Both the position numbers and the translations under genes were made by a program. This document shows, piece by piece, positions 2,874-54,676 of a DNA stretch of 64,000 nt. Below the pieces are notes generated by a model. It searched no databases. It had not been told where the DNA came from and saw only the letters and a program-made list of their open reading frames with translations. The DNA comes from Escherichia coli (GTDB lineage: Bacteria; Pseudomonadota; Gammaproteobacteria; Enterobacterales; Enterobacteriaceae), in NCBI RefSeq assembly GCF_965641715.1, contig NZ_OZ282453.1; one strand, written 5' to 3'. Numbering within the stretch: position 1 is the first letter of the stretch; every line of letters starts with the position of its first letter.

Positions 2874-3119
2874 CTACGTAATCAACCTGATTTGCCGAAT
2901 CCCGACCATCGGCGATGATAGCCCCCGTAATGCGTGGTCCTTATTTCCGATAAGTTTACTTGAGTCTTTAGCTTCCCATTTCAGCCCACTCTCCCCTGTG
3001 TGGGCTTTTTTCATTGGTCTGACCCGTCCTGAATAGCCAAACAATGGCAATGTTCCACTTTGCAGGGATGATAATAAGGGGATCTGATTCAGAAGAGTTT
3101 TGAAAAGTTGGACCGCCAT
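2874..3119 (-). CDS. yahM: Small uncharacterised protein YahM
   Basis: 81 aa from internal ATG of tool ORF 2874..3149; no recognisable motif; the yahN terminator hairpin lies on its antisense strand. Confidence 0.45.
   Translation of the reverse strand: MAVQLFKTLLNQIPLLSSLQSGTLPLFGYSGRVRPMKKAHTGESGLKWEAKDSSKLIGNKDHALRGLSSPMVGIRQIRLIT
2984..3011 (+). terminator. Intrinsic terminator downstream of yahN
   Basis: perfect 6-bp stem gcccac/gtgggc, 10-nt loop, then TTTTTT; about 125 nt after the yahN stop. Confidence 0.55.
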
Positions 3120-3531
3120 CGAGGCCTCGAACCCCGTACCATACAACAATCCTGGTTGTCGTCTGCTCTTCCTGATGAGCTAATGGCGGTTTTTGATATG
3201 AGCCTTACAGCATATTTTCTGTCAGGCTTGAGTGCGATGCGTAAGGTACAGAAAAGACCCCACACAAACATGATGGAATTATGATTTTTTTCATATGAAT
3301 GTCAACCCACACATTCACAAAACATCTGCATGAGATCATTTTTTATACACCGCATGGCTGCGAAACCACTACTGGTGCTTTTTTAAGCGAAGCGTCGCCG
3401 ATCACAACAAAATATCGGCGAAAAAGGCGGTGGAATGCCATTTGGCATACGGATATACAGATGAAATGATTACCTGCATTGCGATTCACTCTCTGGTGGA
3501 ATAACAACTTGCAGGTGGAACCCTTTCTGAA

Positions 3532-4347
3532 CTAAAGAGTGTAGCGGATTTTAACGTGCTTATTTACAGGATAATATCTGTCACCTAATTCCTGGACTCT
3601 ATTAGATATCCATTCATTTAATCGCGCATCATCTCTGTATGTTTTTACGTCCAGAACAGAGAGCAATAACATCACCAGTGATTCAGGAAAAACAGGGTAG
3701 ATATTTTTTAAGTGTAATAATAATCCATGCGCAAGTGCCTGCTTAATGGGCGCGTCTGTCTCCGGAATAGACGACATTTCGCGAAGCCATTTTTCCACAT
3801 GCATACACTCTTTCCCTTTAGGGAAAATTCTCAGCAAAGGCATATGGTGTTCAAGAAGAATACATTTGCAATCTGTTCGCACTGAATCGATAAACTGCAC
3901 TAATTTCTTAAGCCCGGTAAAGCGTCCAGCCTGCACGTTTGCTTTAATATCAAGAAACGCATCATCCTGGTCATATACCCAAACTGTCCCTTTTTGATTT
4001 TCAAGTATGCGAAAAACAAACTTAACCGGGTGATCAGGGTAATCCATCCAGTCATAAAATCCAGGGAAATCATTAAACTGCACATTTATGGTGAGTGCGT
4101 TATCGTCTGACCACTCACAGTCTCGTACGGCAGCCATGAGATGAATGAGTTTGTCGTCATCGACTAAATCATCACGACAATCATAAGGATAATCATAATA
4201 TTGTTTAATCAAAACCTTGAATATATCGACACAGGAAACCAGGGAGCTTTTGATATCCTCTGGTAACTGATTGTTTTTAACCGTATTAAGTATGCTTTGT
4301 TGCGTATATGGCATCAAATTATTGTGCGGAGCTTTTAATGATATCAT
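3532..4347 (-). CDS. yahL: Uncharacterised protein YahL
   Basis: 271-aa ORF with AT-rich codon usage; no recognised motif; position matches K-12 yahL. Confidence 0.7.
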   Translation of the reverse strand: MISLKAPHNNLMPYTQQSILNTVKNNQLPEDIKSSLVSCVDIFKVLIKQYYDYPYDCRDDLVDDDKLIHLMAAVRDCEWSDDNALTINVQFNDFPGFYDWMDYPDHPVKFVFRILENQKGTVWVYDQDDAFLDIKANVQAGRFTGLKKLVQFIDSVRTDCKCILLEHHMPLLRIFPKGKECMHVEKWLREMSSIPETDAPIKQALAHGLLLHLKNIYPVFPESLVMLLLSVLDVKTYRDDARLNEWISNRVQELGDRYYPVNKHVKIRYTL

Positions 4348-4589
4348 CGCGATCTCTCTTAAATAAAAATAAACGTCGCAGATAATAAAGCTCTGATTAA
4401 ACCAGGCACTATCAGAAATCGCTCATAACTAACGTGTGAAGTATTGTGTACTGGAGGGAGTTAATTTAACAATTTGAATTTACGTTATAGGTTTTACTGC
4501 TACTTTGATATTATTTCGCTCTCCTTAACTAAAAAGTTAAGTGGAGAGCGAAGTTAATATGTTAAACCACAGGGTATTTATTAATTTTT

Positions 4590-5639
4590 TCAGTCTGTTA
4601 GTGTGCGATTATCGATAACAAAACGATATTTCACATCACCACGCAGCATTCGCTCATAGGCTTCATTAATTTGATCGGCCCGAATCATCTCTATATCAGC
4701 CACGATGCCATGTTCGGCGCAAAAATCGAGCATCTCCTGAGTTTCTGGAATGCCGCCAATCATAGAACCGGCTATCGCACGGCGTTTCATGATCAGGTTG
4801 AAAACTTCCGGCGATTTATGCGGTGTCGCAGGCGCACCAACCAGCGTCATGGTACCATCACGCTTCAGCAAGGTGGTAAAATCGTCGAGATTATGTGGCG
4901 CAGCTACTGTATTCAAAATGAAATCGAAACTCTTCAGATGAGCCGCCATCTCATCGGCATTGCGTGAGTTAACAACTTCATCGGCCCCCAGGGCTTTTGC
5001 CGCTTCGCGTTTTGCCTCAGAAGTGGTAAATGCCACCACATGTGCCCCCATCGCGTGGGCCAGCTTAATCCCCATATGTCCCAGACCGCCGATGCCGACC
5101 ACGCCCACTTTTTTACCCGGCCCGGCCTGCCAGTGACGTAGCGGCGAATACGTGGTGATCCCTGCACACAACAAAGGAGCCACCGCCGCCAGCTGCTCTT
5201 GCGGGTGACGAATACGCAGAACATATCGCTCATGAACGACGATCTGTTGTGAGTAGCCGCCCAGCGTATGGCCCGGTTCGTCCGGCGTCGGCGAGTTATA
5301 GGTGCCGGTCATGTGATCACAGTAGTTTTCCAGCCCGTCTTCACACTCTTCGCAATGTTTACAACTGTCGACAATGCAGCCGACACCGACCAGATCGCCC
5401 AGCGCATGTTTTTCTACCTGATCACCAACGGCTACCACACGCCCCACAATTTCATGACCCGGCACGCAGGGGTAAACCGTCCCCGCCCACTCGGAACGGA
5501 CCTGGTGGAGATCGGAATGGCAGACGCCACAGTAAGCGATTTCGATTTTGACATCATTCGGTCCCGGTTCACGCCGGGTGATATCCATCGGTTCAAGTGG
5601 TTGTTTAGCGGAATATGCACCAACAGCTTTGATCTTCAT
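4590..5639 (-). CDS. yahK: Zn-dependent NADPH aldehyde reductase (cinnamyl-alcohol dehydrogenase family)
   Basis: 349 aa; Zn ligand motifs GHEIVG and CxxCxxC (CKHCEEC); Rossmann motif GVVGIGGLGH. Confidence 0.9.
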   Translation of the reverse strand: MKIKAVGAYSAKQPLEPMDITRREPGPNDVKIEIAYCGVCHSDLHQVRSEWAGTVYPCVPGHEIVGRVVAVGDQVEKHALGDLVGVGCIVDSCKHCEECEDGLENYCDHMTGTYNSPTPDEPGHTLGGYSQQIVVHERYVLRIRHPQEQLAAVAPLLCAGITTYSPLRHWQAGPGKKVGVVGIGGLGHMGIKLAHAMGAHVVAFTTSEAKREAAKALGADEVVNSRNADEMAAHLKSFDFILNTVAAPHNLDDFTTLLKRDGTMTLVGAPATPHKSPEVFNLIMKRRAIAGSMIGGIPETQEMLDFCAEHGIVADIEMIRADQINEAYERMLRGDVKYRFVIDNRTLTD

Positions 5640-6015
5640 TGTGTTTACTCCTGATTAGCTATGTGTATTTGGCGACGCCTGATATGTCATCGCGGCAAAA
5701 CGCGTCCATTGAATATAGCCAATATTTAAACCACCCGATCCAGCCCCAACATGCCGCGAGCCTGAATGAAACAGAGCAGCAACGTTCCCCATAAGGCGAG
5801 CGCCTATAAGTGTGATATTTGCTATCCGTAAAAGACTAAAATCGGCAAAACTGATGATCTTTTCACGTAGACAAATAGTTATCTACACAACGTCAATAAG
5901 GGCATATTCCTCAAAGATAATGTCCATTTCTGCCGACACACTCATATTCAGATTGCCCCACTCCCTGGGGCTTAAATCTCTTACTATTCACCGTTGCAGG
6001 CGTTTCAAATGCGCA

Positions 6016-7398
6016 TCAACCTGCCACACTCCCCCACACCAGTTGCCCTTTATGGAACGTTGCGGTTCTCGGCGAGATACGCGCCACCGCCTCGGCGGAA
6101 CAGGAGGCGTCCACCAGCACAAAGCTGGCGTCATCCTGCGCTTTTGGCCATACACGCTCGCCTTTTTCATTCAGCGGCAATACATCGCCAGTGGCTAAAA
6201 ACAGCGAACGGGAGAGGTTCTGTTCGTTAGGACGAATATAGAGCTGCGCGTAGAGATTGGCTTTTTCCAGCATGTCGCCCAGACCATAAGGCGACCAGTG
6301 GTCGATAACGCTGTCAGTGCCAGTCATCACTTTTACGCCTTTGTCGTGCAACTGTTTGAGCGGCATATGCAGCGTGCCAATCGGCACTGTCGAGGCGATA
6401 GAAATTTGCTGCACCGCCATCCGGTGCGCCAGTTCATCTACCTGTTGTTCGTTGAGCGTTGCCAGCGCAAAGGCGTGGCTGATGGTCAGCTTGCCCTTCA
6501 GCTGTGGCGTTTTCTCTACCGTTTCAACCATATAATTGATGGCCGCCACGCCTGCCGGAGTGGTTTCGTGCAGGTGAATATCGACGCCTTTGTCGTAGTC
6601 CAGCGCAATCTGGAACATGGTGTCGAGGGATTTTTCCATCGCGCCATCAACACTGGTCGGGTCCAGGCCGCCGACGTAATGCGCCCCCGCCTGCATCGCT
6701 TCACGCATCAAAGGTTCAGATTTCGACAGCAGCAAACCGTGCTGCGGGAAGGCGACGATTTCACACTCAAAGCCCGCCTGACGTCGCGCCAGCACCGCCT
6801 GCAAATTTTGCAGATTTTTCAGGCCGGAAACCGGTTCGATATTGCAGTGGCTGCGGGCAATGGTGGTGCCTTTCGACTGCAATAAATCAATCAGTTTTTC
6901 TGCCCGCTCCTGAGTGTACGGTTGCAGCTCCGGCAGCATTTTCTGCTCGAGTTTGATCATGTCCTGGATGGTGGTGCCTGCCGGACGATTGAGCGAGCGC
7001 CACGGCCCGCCGTAGAAGGTTTTGTCGAGATGAATATGCATGTCGCGGGTGGTGGGCAGCATCAGCTTACCGCCAGCGTCATAGTGCGGCAGCGTGGCGT
7101 CCGGATGCTGCTTGTTCTCGCGCAGGGCGACAATTTTGCCGTCCTGAATCTCCACGGTCTGGCGCGCCGTGCGGGTCTGCACCGCCACACCATTTTCGTA
7201 GTCAAAACCGGTTTCCAGCAGCACGTTGTCGAGATAGTAATGCGGGTCAGTGATTTTCATGGTGTTGTTCGCTTCGCAGTTTAGGGTGCCAGCTACCGCC
7301 GCATGGGCGAGCGGCACAGAGGTACCAAACAGCGCGGCGGCGGTGACCATCTTACCGCTCTGGCTCAAAAACTCACGGCGGCTATTGTTTTCTTTCAT
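6016..7398 (-). CDS. yahJ: Amidohydrolase-superfamily deaminase with twin-arginine signal
   Basis: 460 aa; N-terminal SRREFLS Tat motif followed by hydrophobic stretch and AHA; metal-dependent amidohydrolase-like body. Confidence 0.85.
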   Translation of the reverse strand: MKENNSRREFLSQSGKMVTAAALFGTSVPLAHAAVAGTLNCEANNTMKITDPHYYLDNVLLETGFDYENGVAVQTRTARQTVEIQDGKIVALRENKQHPDATLPHYDAGGKLMLPTTRDMHIHLDKTFYGGPWRSLNRPAGTTIQDMIKLEQKMLPELQPYTQERAEKLIDLLQSKGTTIARSHCNIEPVSGLKNLQNLQAVLARRQAGFECEIVAFPQHGLLLSKSEPLMREAMQAGAHYVGGLDPTSVDGAMEKSLDTMFQIALDYDKGVDIHLHETTPAGVAAINYMVETVEKTPQLKGKLTISHAFALATLNEQQVDELAHRMAVQQISIASTVPIGTLHMPLKQLHDKGVKVMTGTDSVIDHWSPYGLGDMLEKANLYAQLYIRPNEQNLSRSLFLATGDVLPLNEKGERVWPKAQDDASFVLVDASCSAEAVARISPRTATFHKGQLVWGSVAG

Positions 7399-42275: not shown

Positions 42276-43196
42276 ATGAAAACTGTTTCGATAAAACACA
42301 CTTACTGGGATATAGCTGCTGATATCTATTTCCCTGACGATTTTAATAGTGAAAAAAAGTATCCTGCCATTATCAGCGCCCATCCAATTGGAAGCTGCAA
42401 AGAACAGACATCGGGTAGTGTGTATGGTGCCGCCCTGGCAAAAGCTGGCTTTATCGTCATTGCTTTTGATGCCAGTTTTCAGGGTAGCAGCGGTGGGGAA
42501 CCGCGTTATCAGGAAGATCCAACAATGCGAGTAAAAGACTTCAGCATTGTCGTTGATTACCTTACCAGCTTACCTTACGTTGATGCCGGGCGTATTGGTG
42601 TACTGGGTATTTGTGGTGGAGGTGGATATGCCATTAATGCCGCAATGACAGAACGTCGAATTAAAGCTATTGGTACTGTCACGGGTGCAAACTACGGGCG
42701 TCTTATGCGTGAGGGATTTACAGCGTTTAATCCTATCGGAGCACTCGAAGCAATAGCGCAACAAAGAACAGACGAAGCTAACGGCGCAAAACTTCGCGTA
42801 GATGATTTACTCCCCTCTTCTCCGGATGCAGCTCTTGAAGCGGGATTAACAGAAATAGACCTTTTTGAAGCCACAGAATATTATCGTTCGCCACGAGGCT
42901 GTGCACCTAATGGGGTAAATCGTTCGCTATTCTCACATCAGACTGTTGCCGTGGGTTGGGATGCATTTCATCTTGCAGAAGTGCTGTTAACTCAACCAAT
43001 AATGGTTGTGGTGGGCGATAGAGTGGGCGCATTTGGTGCCTACCGTGACGGCTGCGAAATTATTGGCCGCGCTGCTTCAAAACATAAAGAGCTGGTCGTG
43101 GTTGAAGGTTATTCACATTACGACCTGTATGATAAGCCAGAACCTGTGAAACAGGCACTCGATAAATTAATTCCTTTTTATAAAACACATTTGTAA
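42276..43196 (+). CDS. Alpha/beta-fold hydrolase with Cys nucleophile (dienelactone-hydrolase-like)
   Basis: 306 aa; nucleophile-elbow motif GICGGGG; C-terminal GYSHYDLYD (His region); no signal peptide. Confidence 0.75.
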   Translation: MKTVSIKHTYWDIAADIYFPDDFNSEKKYPAIISAHPIGSCKEQTSGSVYGAALAKAGFIVIAFDASFQGSSGGEPRYQEDPTMRVKDFSIVVDYLTSLPYVDAGRIGVLGICGGGGYAINAAMTERRIKAIGTVTGANYGRLMREGFTAFNPIGALEAIAQQRTDEANGAKLRVDDLLPSSPDAALEAGLTEIDLFEATEYYRSPRGCAPNGVNRSLFSHQTVAVGWDAFHLAEVLLTQPIMVVVGDRVGAFGAYRDGCEIIGRAASKHKELVVVEGYSHYDLYDKPEPVKQALDKLIPFYKTHL

Positions 43197-43440
43197 TAAT
43201 TTTACAGGGAGATTTCTTATCTCCCTTATATTTATCCTTTACTGACTACACAACAATAATAAAATTACTCAAAAAGAAATTTCATTAAAGAAACAAAAAA
43301 GCAGCAACTCAATTATTAAGATTATTAGAAACCCTTTGAAGGGATTATAAATAAAGCCAGAAATCTTGGTTCCAAAGCTGGCAACAACTAACCAGTTAAA
43401 ACATACGCATCAAAATCAGATAAACATTTGAGGTATTGTT

Positions 43441-44583
43441 ATGACAAATAAACACCCATCATTGTTTTCTCCTTTTATGCTGACAGAAAAAATAAAGCTA
43501 CGTAATCGTATCGTTATGGCTCCTATGACGACCTGGTCAGCGAATCCTGATGGAACCATCTCTGAGCAAGAACTCGAATTTTATAAACGCCGCTCACAAA
43601 ATGTTGGTTTAGTAATAACAGGATGTACCTATGTCACGCCAAGCGGCATTGGGTTTACTCATGAATTTGCCGCGTATGACGACCGTTTCATTAACAGCCT
43701 TGAAAAGTTAGCAGCGGCAGCCAAAAGTGGGGGTGCTCCGGCTATTTTGCAGATTTTCCACGCCGGTAATAAAGCCATCCCGGAGCTTGTACCAAATAAC
43801 GATGTTATTAGTGCCAGCGCATCAAGCGTAAAATCTGGTGACTTTATGAAGAGAGTGGTACAAAGCAGGGAAATGACTGAAAACGAAATTCAGGAAACCA
43901 TTAGAGCATTCGGAGATGTCACAAAAAGGGCGATTAAAGCAGGTTTTGATGGCATTGAACTTCATGGTGCGCACGGATTCCTTCTACAGAATTTCTTCTC
44001 CCCTCTATTTAACCAGCGTAATGACCGATGGGGAGGAGATCTCGAAGGACGTATGCGCTTCCCGCTGGCCGTATTACAGGAAGTAAAAAATGTAGTCTAT
44101 GAATATGCGACAAAGCCCTTTGCCATCGGTTACAGAATATCTCCTGAAGAATCTGCAACAGGGGGGCTGCGGATAGAGGATACTTATAAACTCCTTGATC
44201 GGCTCATTTCATCCGGTATTTCGTATATACATACCTCGCTGGTCAGTATTAACGAAAGCTACCCTGTTGAGTCGCCAAATGGCCCCCGAACTATTGAATT
44301 GATTTTAAATCATATTGCAGGCAGAGTGCCGGTAATCGCTGCAGGTAAAATACGCACACCGTCTCAGGCTCAAGAAGCAATTTCCACTGGCCTGCCACTT
44401 GTTGCGATCGGTAAAGGGCTGGTGATAAATCCAGAATGGGTGACTTTAGCTGAATCAGGTAGAGGCCATGAAATTCAAACAACCCTTAATCCACAACTTG
44501 TTCCTGAATTAACCATTCCGGATAAACTATGGGATCAAATTCAGGCATCGAAAGGAACTGGCTGGTTTCCGTTAATGGATTAA
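43441..44583 (+). CDS. NADH:flavin oxidoreductase (Old Yellow Enzyme family)
   Basis: 380 aa; OYE motifs HGAHGFLLQNFFSP and DRWGG. Confidence 0.8.
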   Translation: MTNKHPSLFSPFMLTEKIKLRNRIVMAPMTTWSANPDGTISEQELEFYKRRSQNVGLVITGCTYVTPSGIGFTHEFAAYDDRFINSLEKLAAAAKSGGAPAILQIFHAGNKAIPELVPNNDVISASASSVKSGDFMKRVVQSREMTENEIQETIRAFGDVTKRAIKAGFDGIELHGAHGFLLQNFFSPLFNQRNDRWGGDLEGRMRFPLAVLQEVKNVVYEYATKPFAIGYRISPEESATGGLRIEDTYKLLDRLISSGISYIHTSLVSINESYPVESPNGPRTIELILNHIAGRVPVIAAGKIRTPSQAQEAISTGLPLVAIGKGLVINPEWVTLAESGRGHEIQTTLNPQLVPELTIPDKLWDQIQASKGTGWFPLMD

Positions 44584-45056
44584 ATATCTATTACTCTCCC
44601 GAGAGTAAAACTATCAAATCAATGAGTAACTGATACAGCCTCACAAATTCTTTCAGATAATTAACCCGTCACTGCGGCACGTTCTCTCATAAGGCGTGCC
44701 TGCAGTGTAATCCAGTATGTATCCGGCATAGTTGACGGTTTAATAGAGCTCAATTCCTCGCCCAGGTTACCAACAACGATATCTTGTATAACACCCCAGG
44801 AGATACGACATTATGATGAGATGCGATATGCTCCTCAGCGCCAATCAACGCCAGGACTGGGCCAGTCTTGAGATCAGACTCATTCCCGGAACTGACTTCA
44901 GGCGACATATATCAATGACGTTGGTGCAATAAAAGATAGCCGATGTAATACATCTATTCAAATTTGTGATACATATCAAAAAATTGGTTGACCAAACTCG
45001 TTATTTATATAAGGGCACTTACGAAGTGCGCTCTTTTTTAAAGCGAGGAAGTACCA

Positions 45057-45158
45057 ATGAAAGAGAATAAAGTACAACAAATCAGTCATAAACTGATTAA
45101 TATCGTTGTTTTTGTCGCAATTGTAGAATACGCCTATTTATTTCTCCATTTCTATTAA
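45057..45158 (+). CDS. ykgR: 33-aa small hydrophobic protein (YkgR-like)
   Basis: ATG with GAGG-type RBS (aagcgaggaagtaccaATG); MKENKVQQISHKLINIVVFVAIVEYAYLFLHFY has a single predicted TM helix. Confidence 0.5.
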   Translation: MKENKVQQISHKLINIVVFVAIVEYAYLFLHFY

Positions 45159-45491
45159 TAACGGCAATAAACTGTTCACTTCAGTGATATTTAAAATATG
45201 CATCCTCTCCCTTTTTGTAAGTAATTATTATATCCGTGGGAGAGGAATACACGCTGTCAGGTAATCAATCATACTGCGATAAATCATCGGCCAGTAAAGT
45301 GGAGATAACCTCCATTCTCGAAAAATCCATACTCTCAGCGAAACTATCATCAATCACTCATCCAGGCGTTTATGGGAGCGTCGCCAATGGCTGTTAACAA
45401 TGCCAGAGTTCCCCGTTGAGGAAATTCCACATACCACTAATGGTCACAGGGATTGGGTGTTGAAATGATCCGGATGAGCATGTATCTTTAT

Positions 45492-45513
45492 GGTTATGTT
45501 ATAACATAACAGG
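45492..45513. promoter_or_regulatory. Zur box upstream of ykgM-ykgO
   Basis: perfect 18-bp palindrome gttatgttataacataac, 9 nt upstream of the ykgM ATG, matching the Zur operator core TGTTATA-TATAACA. Confidence 0.8.
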
Positions 45514-45521
45514 CAAAAATG

Positions 45522-45785
45522 ATGAAGCCCAATATCCATCCTGAGTATCGTACTGTGGTGTTCCACGACACCAGTGTTGATGAGTACTTTAAAATCGGCT
45601 CGACTATCAAAACAGACCGTGAGATTGAGCTGGATGGCGTAACGTATCCGTACGTAACAATTGATGTCTCTTCGAAATCGCACCCGTTCTATACAAGGAA
45701 GCTGAGAACAGTGGCATCAGAAGGAAATGTTGCACGGTTCACCCAACGTTTTGGTCGTTTTGTTAGCACGAAAAAGGGGGCATGA
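45522..45785 (+). CDS. ykgM: Ribosomal protein L31 paralogue, type B (zinc-independent)
   Basis: 87 aa [18 protein letters not shown]; lacks the CxxC zinc ribbon of L31. Confidence 0.9.
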
Positions 45786-45925
45786 TGAAAGTCCTTAACT
45801 CTCTGCGTACCGCAAAAGAACGCCATCCAGACTGTCAGATTGTGAAGCGAAAAGGACGGCTATATGTGATTTGTAAATCTAATCCACGCTTTAAGGCCGT
45901 TCAGGGTCGTAAGAAAAAACGTTGA
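45785..45925 (+). CDS. ykgO: Ribosomal protein L36 paralogue (zinc-independent)
   Basis: 46 aa [46 protein letters not shown]; start overlaps the ykgM stop. Confidence 0.85.
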
Positions 45926-45976
45926 TTTAAAATTCGACGAATTAACGATATTTGTCTGATTAATAATCAGACCGGA

Positions 45977-46013
45977 TTAATGTTGGTGTATTTATTACAC
46001 CAGCATTAATTTT
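45977..46013 (+). terminator. Intrinsic terminator after ykgO
   Basis: 14-bp stem ttaatgttggtgta/tacaccagcattaa (one G-U pair), 5-nt loop, then TTTT. Confidence 0.6.
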
Positions 46014-46940
46014 CCTGGGGATGTATCTTCCTGTTCATTTAAGGTCAACTGCCTGACGTTTCTCTCCGAATATTCCATTATATTAATGTTGACTTGTTGA
46101 CCAGCTTCGCCCCTGTATGCTGGCATCAACCCTCTTTTAGACTGAACACGCCACTCAGTTTCCTCCCTTTGCGACGCAGCCTGCATTTACACTCAAACTG
46201 TTAAGATGATAAATGTGGTAAATCTGTTGGTACTGACATAAAAACGTTTACGCCACAGGAACGGCCTGATCCACCGGTAACCCCGTCGCCGACGTTCGAG
46301 TGCCAGTTAGAGTAACGCGCACAGATGACTGAATGCAGTGCCCTGGCAAAGAGGCCATCGTTCCGGTGACAACTGGCAGTCTTCGTTTAACTTCACTTAA
46401 TCTGGCTCTTAGGGGGCTTACCGGACAGATGACGTACTTACACCTGTTTAATTTTTCATCACTTATTGGGATGAACACCCATAACCATTTTGTGCGGCAT
46501 GTTAACCCATTAAAACACCTTACTGATTGGCAAATCATCTTTAATTATGACTCATGATAGTTTTATATTCTATTTCTTATCATTTAGACTTGTTTTTTTA
46601 CTAGTCCATTACACAACACATTAAGACTATTCCTAACATCTCAGGGCAAAGTTCCTGGCTAATATAAAATGCAAGTAAGAATTGAACGTTATATTGCCAA
46701 TAACCTTATGAAACTGAATGTCTTTTTCTTCTTATCAAAAAAGCAATATTTTCATTTTTTGTAAATATTGACTTAACCATGGAATTCATTTTCTGTTCAC
46801 ATATTGACACTCATCAGGAAAAAAACATAAATTTAAACCTAATCGAAATAATTAAAACTTAATCTCGTTTAACCTATATTGATATGTGCTACGTATCTTA
46901 TTTACTTCCGATTTACTAAAGAAACTGAATGTACCTGTAA

Positions 46941-47552
<612 letters not shown>

Positions 47553-54644: not shown

Positions 54645-54676
54645 ATAAAAATGGCGCTGTATTTGCGCCATTTTTA
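54645..54676. terminator. Bidirectional terminator between convergent ykgJ and yagU
   Basis: 8-bp stem aatggcgc/gcgccatt flanked by an A-run upstream and T-run downstream. Confidence 0.65.

Follow-up and report, generated by a model that had tools for sequence, protein, structure and literature searches.

The small membrane protein gene ykgR in an Escherichia coli genome and the conserved hairpin of its probable leader

The ykgR gene and its surroundings

The 64,000-nucleotide stretch of Escherichia coli chromosomal DNA analysed here, hereafter referred to as the window, carries a 33-codon open reading frame (ORF) preceded by a short hairpin and a T-run. The following elements were recognised in and around this ORF.

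44942-44954, unstranded: 13-bp palindrome GATGTA-A-TACATC, the 5' edge of the conserved module, near-invariant in five lineages
44965-44980, unstranded: CRP-like box TGTGA-N6-TCAAA, here TGTGATACATATCAAA, with one mismatch to TGTGA-N6-TCACA
44984-44995, unstranded: TTGGTTGACCAA, a conserved inverted repeat TTGGT-N2-ACCAA that includes the -35-like TTGACC
45002-45013, plus strand: A/T-rich zone, the inferred -10 region, with the overlapping candidates TATTTA, TATATA and TATAAG
45015-45029, plus strand: 6-bp stem-loop GCACUU-ACG-AAGUGC, the proposed 5'-leader hairpin of the ykgR mRNA
45034-45039, plus strand: U6 tract (TTTTTT), ending 5 nt before the Shine-Dalgarno (SD) sequence, with 5-6 T in all lineages
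45045-45049, plus strand: SD sequence GAGGA, 7 nt ahead of the ykgR ATG
45057-45158, plus strand: ykgR coding sequence, ATG, 33 codons plus TAA, encoding the small inner-membrane protein YkgR
45203-45246, plus strand: 3' stem-loop UCCUCUCCC / GGGAGAGGA, with a 26-nt A/U-rich loop that holds an inner helix, the 3' edge of the module

It is virtually certain that the ORF is ykgR, a gene that is annotated in RefSeq and has been studied experimentally. Its 33-aa product, MKENKVQQISHKLINIVVFVAIVEYAYLFLHFY (translated from 45057..45158, + strand), matched UniProt YKGR_ECOLI exactly in an exact-sequence look-up and was identical to the YkgR peptide of the K-12 counterpart b4671 (313141..313242), the two ORFs differing at a single, synonymous position. 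The NCBIfam equivalog NF041474 aligned with the peptide over its full length, residues 1-33 onto profile positions 1-33 (78.1 bits, cutoff 40, E = 2.6e-22), and the RefSeq annotation 'small membrane protein YkgR' lay beneath the match in thousands of genomes. The Pfam family PF28062 'YkgR' is assigned to orthologues in precomputed annotation, and our local Pfam copy gave no PF28062 match for the window peptide. The earlier note, made from the letters of the DNA, had reported a 33-aa ORF with a good ribosome-binding site and had pointed to a 33-aa ykgR near ykgM in K-12; both points held, with the ATG at 45057, GAGGA 7 nt upstream of it, and b4671 lying upstream of ykgM-ykgO. In E. coli, ykgR lies upstream of ykgM-ykgO in the same orientation. 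The distance given in the note, about 360 bp from the ORF to a Zur box, was roughly right, the ykgM ATG (45519) being 360 nt past the ykgR stop codon. Just ahead of ykgM, at 45497-45511, we found a Zur-box-like site with one mismatch to TGTTATANTATAACA, which we take to be the core pattern of the Zur box; a 23-nt Zur consensus gave no match with up to 3 mismatches. The size of the ORF alone is no better than chance, the 4.5 kb around ykgR holding 72 ORFs of 20 aa or more, and we take ykgR as real because it is conserved and backed by the literature. A search of Rfam over 43000-47500 returned nothing relevant (a folP match at E = 0.88 was at chance level).

We further compared the neighbourhood of ykgR between lineages. 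In E. albertii, the E. fergusonii-type loci and Escherichia sp. E1V33, homology to the window spans approximately 44942-45250 while the flanks differ: the DNA upstream of the palindrome is unrelated between lineages, and homology stops just past the 3' stem-loop. This module of about 310 bp contains the CRP-like box, the hairpin with its T-run, the SD sequence, the ORF and the 3' stem-loop. The 326-nt module of K-12 is 99% identical to that of the window, with the hairpin, T-run, SD sequence and 3' stem-loop all identical. In E. albertii, the DNA upstream of the module is unrelated and ykgMO follows downstream. The E. fergusonii-type loci have pieces of the oxidoreductase gene directly against the module; on the downstream side, the place of ykgMO is taken by integrase/phage genes, by PerC-family genes, or by genes for aldehyde dehydrogenase and amino-acid kinase, so that a position upstream of ykgMO is not universal in Escherichia. 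The window and K-12 also differ from each other, in that the hydrolase and oxidoreductase genes upstream are intact in the window, whereas in K-12 the oxidoreductase gene is reduced to its last 30 codons (the pseudogene ykgP), followed by eaeH/IS3. Since the module is conserved while its flanks differ, ykgR is self-contained and is not part of the ykgMO operon. It therefore lies outside this Zur-controlled operon, its tie to the oxidoreductase gene is loose, and it very probably forms an independent transcription unit, of which the ~115 bp upstream of the ATG would be the promoter and leader.

Conservation and distribution of ykgR

A query of ~1.4 kb around the site matched 5090 of 5426 complete E. 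coli genomes, with ykgR, ykgM, ykgO and ykgL as its annotated features, and a 271-bp ykgR segment was found in 5071 of the 5426. We compared five lineages, namely E. coli, the V6I allele of the E. fergusonii-type genomes, E. albertii, Escherichia sp. E1V33 and the Escherichia contig L002. All ten lineage pairs gave pN/pS values of 0.03-0.19, which is the conservation at the amino-acid level whose lack the earlier note had listed among the findings that would speak against the ORF. The gene is under purifying selection, and this is consistent with translation. Substitutions in the cytoplasmic part of the peptide comprised V6I, Q8E/K and H11N, while I22V was the only change within residues 13-33 and Glu24 was invariant. 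Around the SD sequence, AAAGCGAGGAA was unchanged across the five Escherichia lineages.

At the other end of the module, the 3' stem-loop folded far better than shuffled sequences (z = -3.45), and its pairing was kept in four lineages, with one compensatory pair and with U-G wobbles, which hold for the + strand alone. No U-tract directly follows this stem. From these features, we propose that the stem-loop at 45203-45246 may be the 3' end or a stabiliser of the ykgR transcript.

Within the material searched, ykgR is restricted to the genus Escherichia. An exhaustive HMMER search of 1.84 billion representatives returned 9 matches, three of which were Nextera-adapter chimeras, the adapter frames giving LSLIHI, CLLYTSDAAD and VSYTHLTLPT. 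One further match came from an assembly riddled with indels. Two apparent diverged homologues among these artefacts were rejected: the C-terminus of one (P0021, 77%) was encoded by a Nextera adapter at a contig end, and the locus of the other (P0024, 66%) carried scattered indels and no long ORFs. The remaining matches were truncated or frameshifted copies. We also scanned one genome per species across ~100,000 species with the degenerate DNA pattern K-h-h-N-h-h-h-F-h-A-h-h-E-Y (h = any NTN codon), and its only matches were E. albertii, Escherichia sp. E1V33 and a pair of very small contigs from Firmicutes assemblies. These contigs were discarded as contamination, since their ykgR ORF, together with 130 nt of upstream sequence, is exactly that of K-12.

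Apparent distant homologues of YkgR in large protein collections were mostly adapter chimeras, error-bearing assemblies and contamination.

The upstream block and the hairpin

The block upstream of ykgR holds several candidate promoter elements. The palindrome at its 5' edge is a possible regulator site. The half-sites of the CRP-like box were invariant in the five lineages, variation being confined to the N6 spacer; the 64 kb held 4 such boxes against 1.8 expected by chance, and no report of CRP control of ykgR was found in the literature searched. Mean pairwise divergence was lowest in the palindrome/CRP zone (0.085) and highest in the hairpin (0.21), where it nears the divergence at synonymous sites (0.27-0.43), and indels within the block were confined to the stretch between the A/T-rich zone and the hairpin. 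Sigma-70 scoring, a rough measure based on approximate hexamer frequencies, identified no strong conserved promoter upstream of ykgR, and neither did a separate promoter scan. The most consistently conserved sigma-70-like match was TTCAAA-16-AAAAAT, with an implied transcription start site (TSS) at ~44991; the core promoter would then include the CRP box, and the hairpin would lie ~24 nt inside the leader. A self-consistent alternative is the layout of a class II CRP promoter, which would set the centre of the box (44972.5) at -41.5, the -10 element at TATTTA (45002-45007) and the TSS at ~45014. The -10 candidates in 45002-45013 all lack the -7 T, so that none of them combines it with the -11 A, and TTGACC stands at a usable -35/-10 distance only where a lineage has one additional base. 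Motifs for sigma-54, sigma-28 and sigma-E, checked by eye, had the wrong spacing or were unconserved. The supplementary tables of Cappable-seq and SMRT-Cappable-seq contained no match for a ykgR TSS.

The hairpin gcactt-acg-aagtgc and the six T residues described in the earlier note were present upstream of the ORF (45015-45029 and 45034-45039), with GCTC between them. The hairpin fold has a predicted energy of -9.3 kcal/mol (z = -1.6), and values across the five lineages ranged from -6.6 to -11 kcal/mol (z about -0.3 to -1.6). A local scan for the terminator pattern of a hairpin plus T-run gave 1 site versus 1.5 +/- 1.4 in shuffles, while under a stricter definition the whole window held 5 such motifs versus 1.0 +/- 1.1 in random sequence; the 401 nt around the site contained 18 pairs of 6-nt inverted repeats. 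By itself the hairpin is unremarkable, and its weight comes from its retention across lineages. Pairing was kept in 96.7% of cells in the five lineages, compared with 33-70% when the partner strand was slid. The third stem pair changes from AU (E. coli, E. fergusonii-type) to GU (L002) and GC (E1V33, E. albertii), and one-sided stem changes were mostly G-U wobbles valid on the + strand only (4 of 5 wobble-compatible by our own count, p ~0.19). Covariation, which was non-significant with five sequences (155 of 500 shuffles scored equally well), is suggestive only.

These statistics bear on the explanation that the hairpin has no RNA function and is a chance repeat, a part of the promoter or discriminator acting at the DNA level, or a protein-binding palindrome. 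The high local base rate of inverted repeats, a fold z of only -1.6 and the non-significant covariation all fit such an origin, as does TTGACC-16-TATAAG: this promoter match scores best in the E. fergusonii-type sequence, and transcripts from it would begin inside the stem, at about -36 relative to the ATG. However, TTGACC and TATAAG are too close together in E. coli and E1V33 (14 nt), and the pairing was retained even though no other part of the upstream block varies as much as these 15 nt, the changes making up an AU/GU/GC series plus G-U wobbles that only + strand RNA would allow. We consider this explanation unlikely.

The position of the hairpin bears on the two roles that the earlier note had offered for it, termination of transcripts from the upstream oxidoreductase gene or service as a leader element. 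The hairpin stands only 5-15 nt ahead of the ykgR SD sequence; its T-run reaches to 45039 and the SD sequence begins at 45045, which leaves no room for a promoter between them. The hairpin is thus not a terminator ahead of a ykgR promoter, and mRNAs from which ykgR is translated must start at or upstream of the U-tract, with the hairpin in the leader or at its start. We conclude that the hairpin is probably part of the ykgR leader rather than a terminator serving upstream genes; the leader role is the one that the evidence favours, short of proof. Taken as a whole, the reading of a known gene whose own leader includes the hairpin is on balance the one we adopt. With a TSS at ~45014, GCACUU/AAGUGC would form a 5'-terminal hairpin of the mRNA and guard it against decay that depends on the 5' end, and the U6 tract next to the SD sequence may be an A/U-rich landing site for the ribosome (S1) or Hfq and not a termination signal. 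The specific role of a 5'-terminal stabiliser, drawn by analogy, is tentative, and we give it slightly less than an even chance. Pairing between the U-tract and the SD region (GAGGAAG) was rejected as a mechanism, being marginal in the single-sequence fold (z = -0.7) and absent from the consensus fold.

The hairpin might also be part of a leader attenuator, in which transcription starts upstream (e.g., at ~44991) and the hairpin with its U-tract acts as a weak, possibly regulated intrinsic terminator within the 5' UTR. The pair fits the generic terminator pattern and belongs to a motif class that is enriched in the window (5 versus 1.0 in random sequence), and the promoter required, TTCAAA-16/17-AAAA(A/C)T, is the most consistently conserved match and has both key positions in its -10 element. 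In terms of a G+C-rich stem, 3 of the 6 pairs are G-C and U6 begins 4 nt past the perfect stem; if the stem is extended by two pairs (A45012-U45032 and G45013-C45031) across a G/G mismatch, U6 begins 1 nt past it in the consensus structure. However, the E. fergusonii-type sequence does not keep this extension, the stem is short and weak at the energies and z values given above, and the consensus fold shows no evident antiterminator structure. The Term-seq data of Adams et al. 2021 also argue against it. Their tables cover 3' ends up to 200 nt upstream of ORFs, for cultures in LB (OD 0.4 and 2.0) and M63 glucose, and all four complete supplementary tables, OD 2.0 included, contained no 3' end at K-12 313250-313289 and no 'ykgR' label. 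This negative is a weak one, since the tables report no 3' end at all for ykgR, whose expression may have been too low. Attenuation is quite unlikely in our assessment. The same holds for a broader and more speculative scheme in which the CRP-like box, hairpin and U-tract would together form a conditional attenuator or an S1/Hfq switch while the Glu24 helix docks on a membrane partner; if true, the leader device would tie YkgR synthesis to carbon or stationary-phase status.

That the hairpin and T-run insulate ykgR by blocking read-through from the NADH-flavin oxidoreductase gene, or from other upstream transcription, is very unlikely. The pattern is terminator-like, on the correct strand and downstream of a co-oriented gene, but it lies 430 nt beyond the oxidoreductase stop codon (44583), and a stronger hairpin at 44670-44708 is much nearer to that stop. 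Moreover, the hairpin is conserved with ykgR where the upstream gene is different or degraded: E. albertii has retained it next to unrelated upstream DNA, and the E. fergusonii-type loci have retained it with only oxidoreductase fragments upstream. With no promoter space before the SD sequence, efficient termination would silence ykgR too, and the Term-seq tables report no 3' end at the site. The terminator role suggested earlier is thus not supported, and the hairpin should not be taken as the terminator of the oxidoreductase gene.

The reading of YkgR as a type I toxin-like hydrophobic peptide under the control of an antisense RNA can practically be set aside: the peptide is small and hydrophobic, was screened beside Hok toxins as an RseP substrate according to PMC10470546, and has an antisense promoter-like match (TGGAGA-17-TACAAT) inside its ORF, but the -10 of this match, the only one found in a search for a conserved antisense RNA, is unconserved (TACGAT, AACAAC and TACAAC in other lineages), promoter-like matches in the region fall below shuffle expectation (3 versus 4.8), Rfam gave no relevant match over 43000-47500, PMC7549839 and PMC7558204 describe routine plasmid overexpression and a fusion tag with good yields, and the parts of the literature covered by our search report no toxicity.

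The YkgR protein and comparison with known systems

Residues 13-33 of YkgR are hydrophobic (mean Kyte-Doolittle +1.9, compared with -1.6 for residues 1-12), and residues 1-12 contain 3 Lys and 1 Glu. The suggestion that the second half of the peptide is a plausible single transmembrane (TM) helix was borne out by this profile and by published work on YkgR as a small single-pass membrane protein; the TM helix would take up the C-terminal two thirds of the peptide. Its primary discovery papers are reportedly Hemm 2008, Hemm 2010 and Fontaine 2011.

According to PMC7549839, His-tagged YkgR expressed from a plasmid was seen in vivo, and a photo-cross-linker at V6 gave a cross-link to SRP that was ribosome-independent, formed after release from the ribosome, and was lost when membranes were added. 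PMC7549839 and PMC10502375 present YkgR as the second case of post-translational SRP recognition among small membrane proteins, and the latter also describes its induction in stationary phase. PMC10470546 places YkgR among the class I substrates of the site-2 protease RseP, which cleaved it in 4 of 4 in vivo and in vitro assays. The review PMC7558204 credits the N-in/C-out topology of YkgR to Fontaine et al. 2011 and mentions its use as a periplasmic fusion tag. The portions of the literature searched give no physiological function or partner for YkgR. A conserved, buried Glu24 in a near-invariant helix would suit an intramembrane contact with a larger membrane protein. By analogy with other bacterial small membrane proteins, this suggests that YkgR may act through such a contact, because the helix is near-invariant, Glu24 is conserved, and substitutions between lineages fall mostly in the cytoplasmic N-terminus.

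The ykgR observation is real and correctly identified, and it was already known. What our analysis adds is the assignment of the hairpin to the ykgR leader, a description of the conserved CRP-like box and 3' stem-loop, and the findings that ykgR is genus-restricted and modular and that several of its apparent homologues are database artefacts. These are small refinements only and matter little for discovery.

Compared with known systems, the ykgR hairpin shares with a canonical terminator in the window (54652-54670) a stem with at least 3 G-C pairs and a T-run that follows. The terminator at 54652-54670 is bidirectional, with the T-run directly after the stem on both strands, whereas 4 nt (GCTC) intervene in the ykgR hairpin, which also differs from a canonical terminator in its weak stem, its position next to an SD sequence and the lack of a Term-seq 3' end. 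Nor does it stand at the end of a transcription unit, being 430 nt past the upstream stop codon and with its T-run ending 5 nt before the ykgR SD sequence. Enterobacterial mRNAs such as that of ompA carry 5'-terminal stabilising stem-loops in their 5' UTRs. In the proposed ykgR leader the elements come in the same order, first a short stem-loop predicted at or close to the 5' end, then a single-stranded U-rich stretch and then the SD sequence, although the likeness is one of resemblance only.

As a protein, YkgR has its counterparts in YohP, YshB, YoaJ, YncL, AcrZ, CydX and MgrB, all of which, like YkgR, are shorter than 50 aa and have one TM helix. Partners of AcrZ, CydX and MgrB are defined. 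YkgR shows no sequence similarity to any of the seven; they are, however, described, as YkgR is, as stress- or stationary-phase-associated, YohP has post-translational SRP recognition in common with YkgR, and YshB, YncL and others share with it cleavage by RseP.

The oxidoreductase gene and the edges of the ykgR module

The 33-codon gene for the small inner-membrane protein YkgR lies in a block of about 310 bp that is conserved among Escherichia lineages between lineage-specific flanks, hereafter referred to as the ykgR module (about 44942-45250). We placed the following features in and around it.

43441-44583: intact gene for an NADH-dependent flavin oxidoreductase (380 aa)
44670-44708: strong imperfect inverted repeat, CACUGCGGCACG...CGUGCCUGCAGUG, ~90 nt past the oxidoreductase stop codon
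44942-44954: palindrome of 13 bp (GATGTA-A-TACATC) that lies exactly at the module's 5' boundary
45057-45158 (+): ykgR
45159-45518: ykgM-ykgR intergenic region
45203-45246: stem-loop downstream of ykgR, with a 9-bp G+C-rich stem and a 26-nt A/U-rich loop
45460-45488: ykgM promoter-like site TTGAAA-17-TATCTT
45497-45511: Zur-box-like palindrome, just downstream of the promoter-like site

Homology between the window and K-12 starts at 44492, and the K-12 pseudogene ykgP (K-12 313716..313805) corresponds to the last 30 codons of the window oxidoreductase gene (44494-44583). The region of the inverted repeat that follows this gene had a fold z of -2.77, and no T-run followed the repeat on either strand. 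The repeat may form the oxidoreductase transcript's 3' structure, or it may be REP-like; the segment that holds it (44592-44928) is missing from the E. fergusonii-type loci. Used only for comparison, an element elsewhere in the window (54652-54670) consists of a perfect, G+C-rich inverted repeat of 6 bp (TGGCGC/GCGCCA) whose stem is adjoined by T-runs on both strands, and it has the look of a textbook intrinsic terminator that works in both directions.

The palindrome at the 5' boundary was nearly invariant across Escherichia lineages, and is a candidate binding site for some regulator. The 3' boundary coincides with the stem-loop downstream of ykgR, which was likewise conserved (z = -3.45; one compensatory pair). 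Directly past this stem-loop, the DNA of the four E. fergusonii-type loci (L004-L007, about 3200-6100) differed from strain to strain, containing integrase or phage genes, genes of the PerC family, or genes for aldehyde dehydrogenase and amino-acid kinase. In E. fergusonii-type genomes, the ykgR module adjoins an insertion and rearrangement hot spot.

Spurious YkgR homologues and ykgR copies from probable contamination

Three protein-collection matches (P0017, P0021, and P0022) were rejected as untrimmed-adapter chimeras at contig ends, their C-termini (CLLYTSDAAD.., LSLIHI, and VSYTHLTLPT..) between them representing all three frames in which the Nextera adapter CTGTCTCTTATACACATCT can be read; for P0021, the stretch concerned is 3079-3106 of the unassigned Escherichia contig L002. 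The most diverged match (P0024, 66%) derives from an E. coli-like locus (L003; GCA_900603405.1, 1-6105) in which indels are scattered and long ORFs are lacking upstream of ecpR; it looks like the product of a low-accuracy assembly rather than a genuine variant. Furthermore, ykgR and its 130 upstream nucleotides were identical to E. coli K-12 on short contigs of two Firmicutes assemblies, 'Sulfoacidibacillus thermotolerans' (L009, 403 bp) and 'Alkalicoccobacillus porphyridii' (L011, 264 bp, coverage 0.79); this identity almost certainly reflects laboratory E. coli contamination of both.

The ykgM-ykgR intergenic region

In a K-12 background, a spontaneous suppressor mutation that gave a ydgH deletion mutant back its detergent tolerance was mapped between ykgM and ykgR, as a T->C substitution (PMC11705850). 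The gene immediately preceding ykgR on L002 is YdgH/BhsA-like. The Zur-box-like palindrome is overlapped by a second such match (45492-45506). The promoter-like site agrees with the ykgMO promoter in the list of Shimada et al. 2014 (PMC3946193), who noted H-NS for this spacer.
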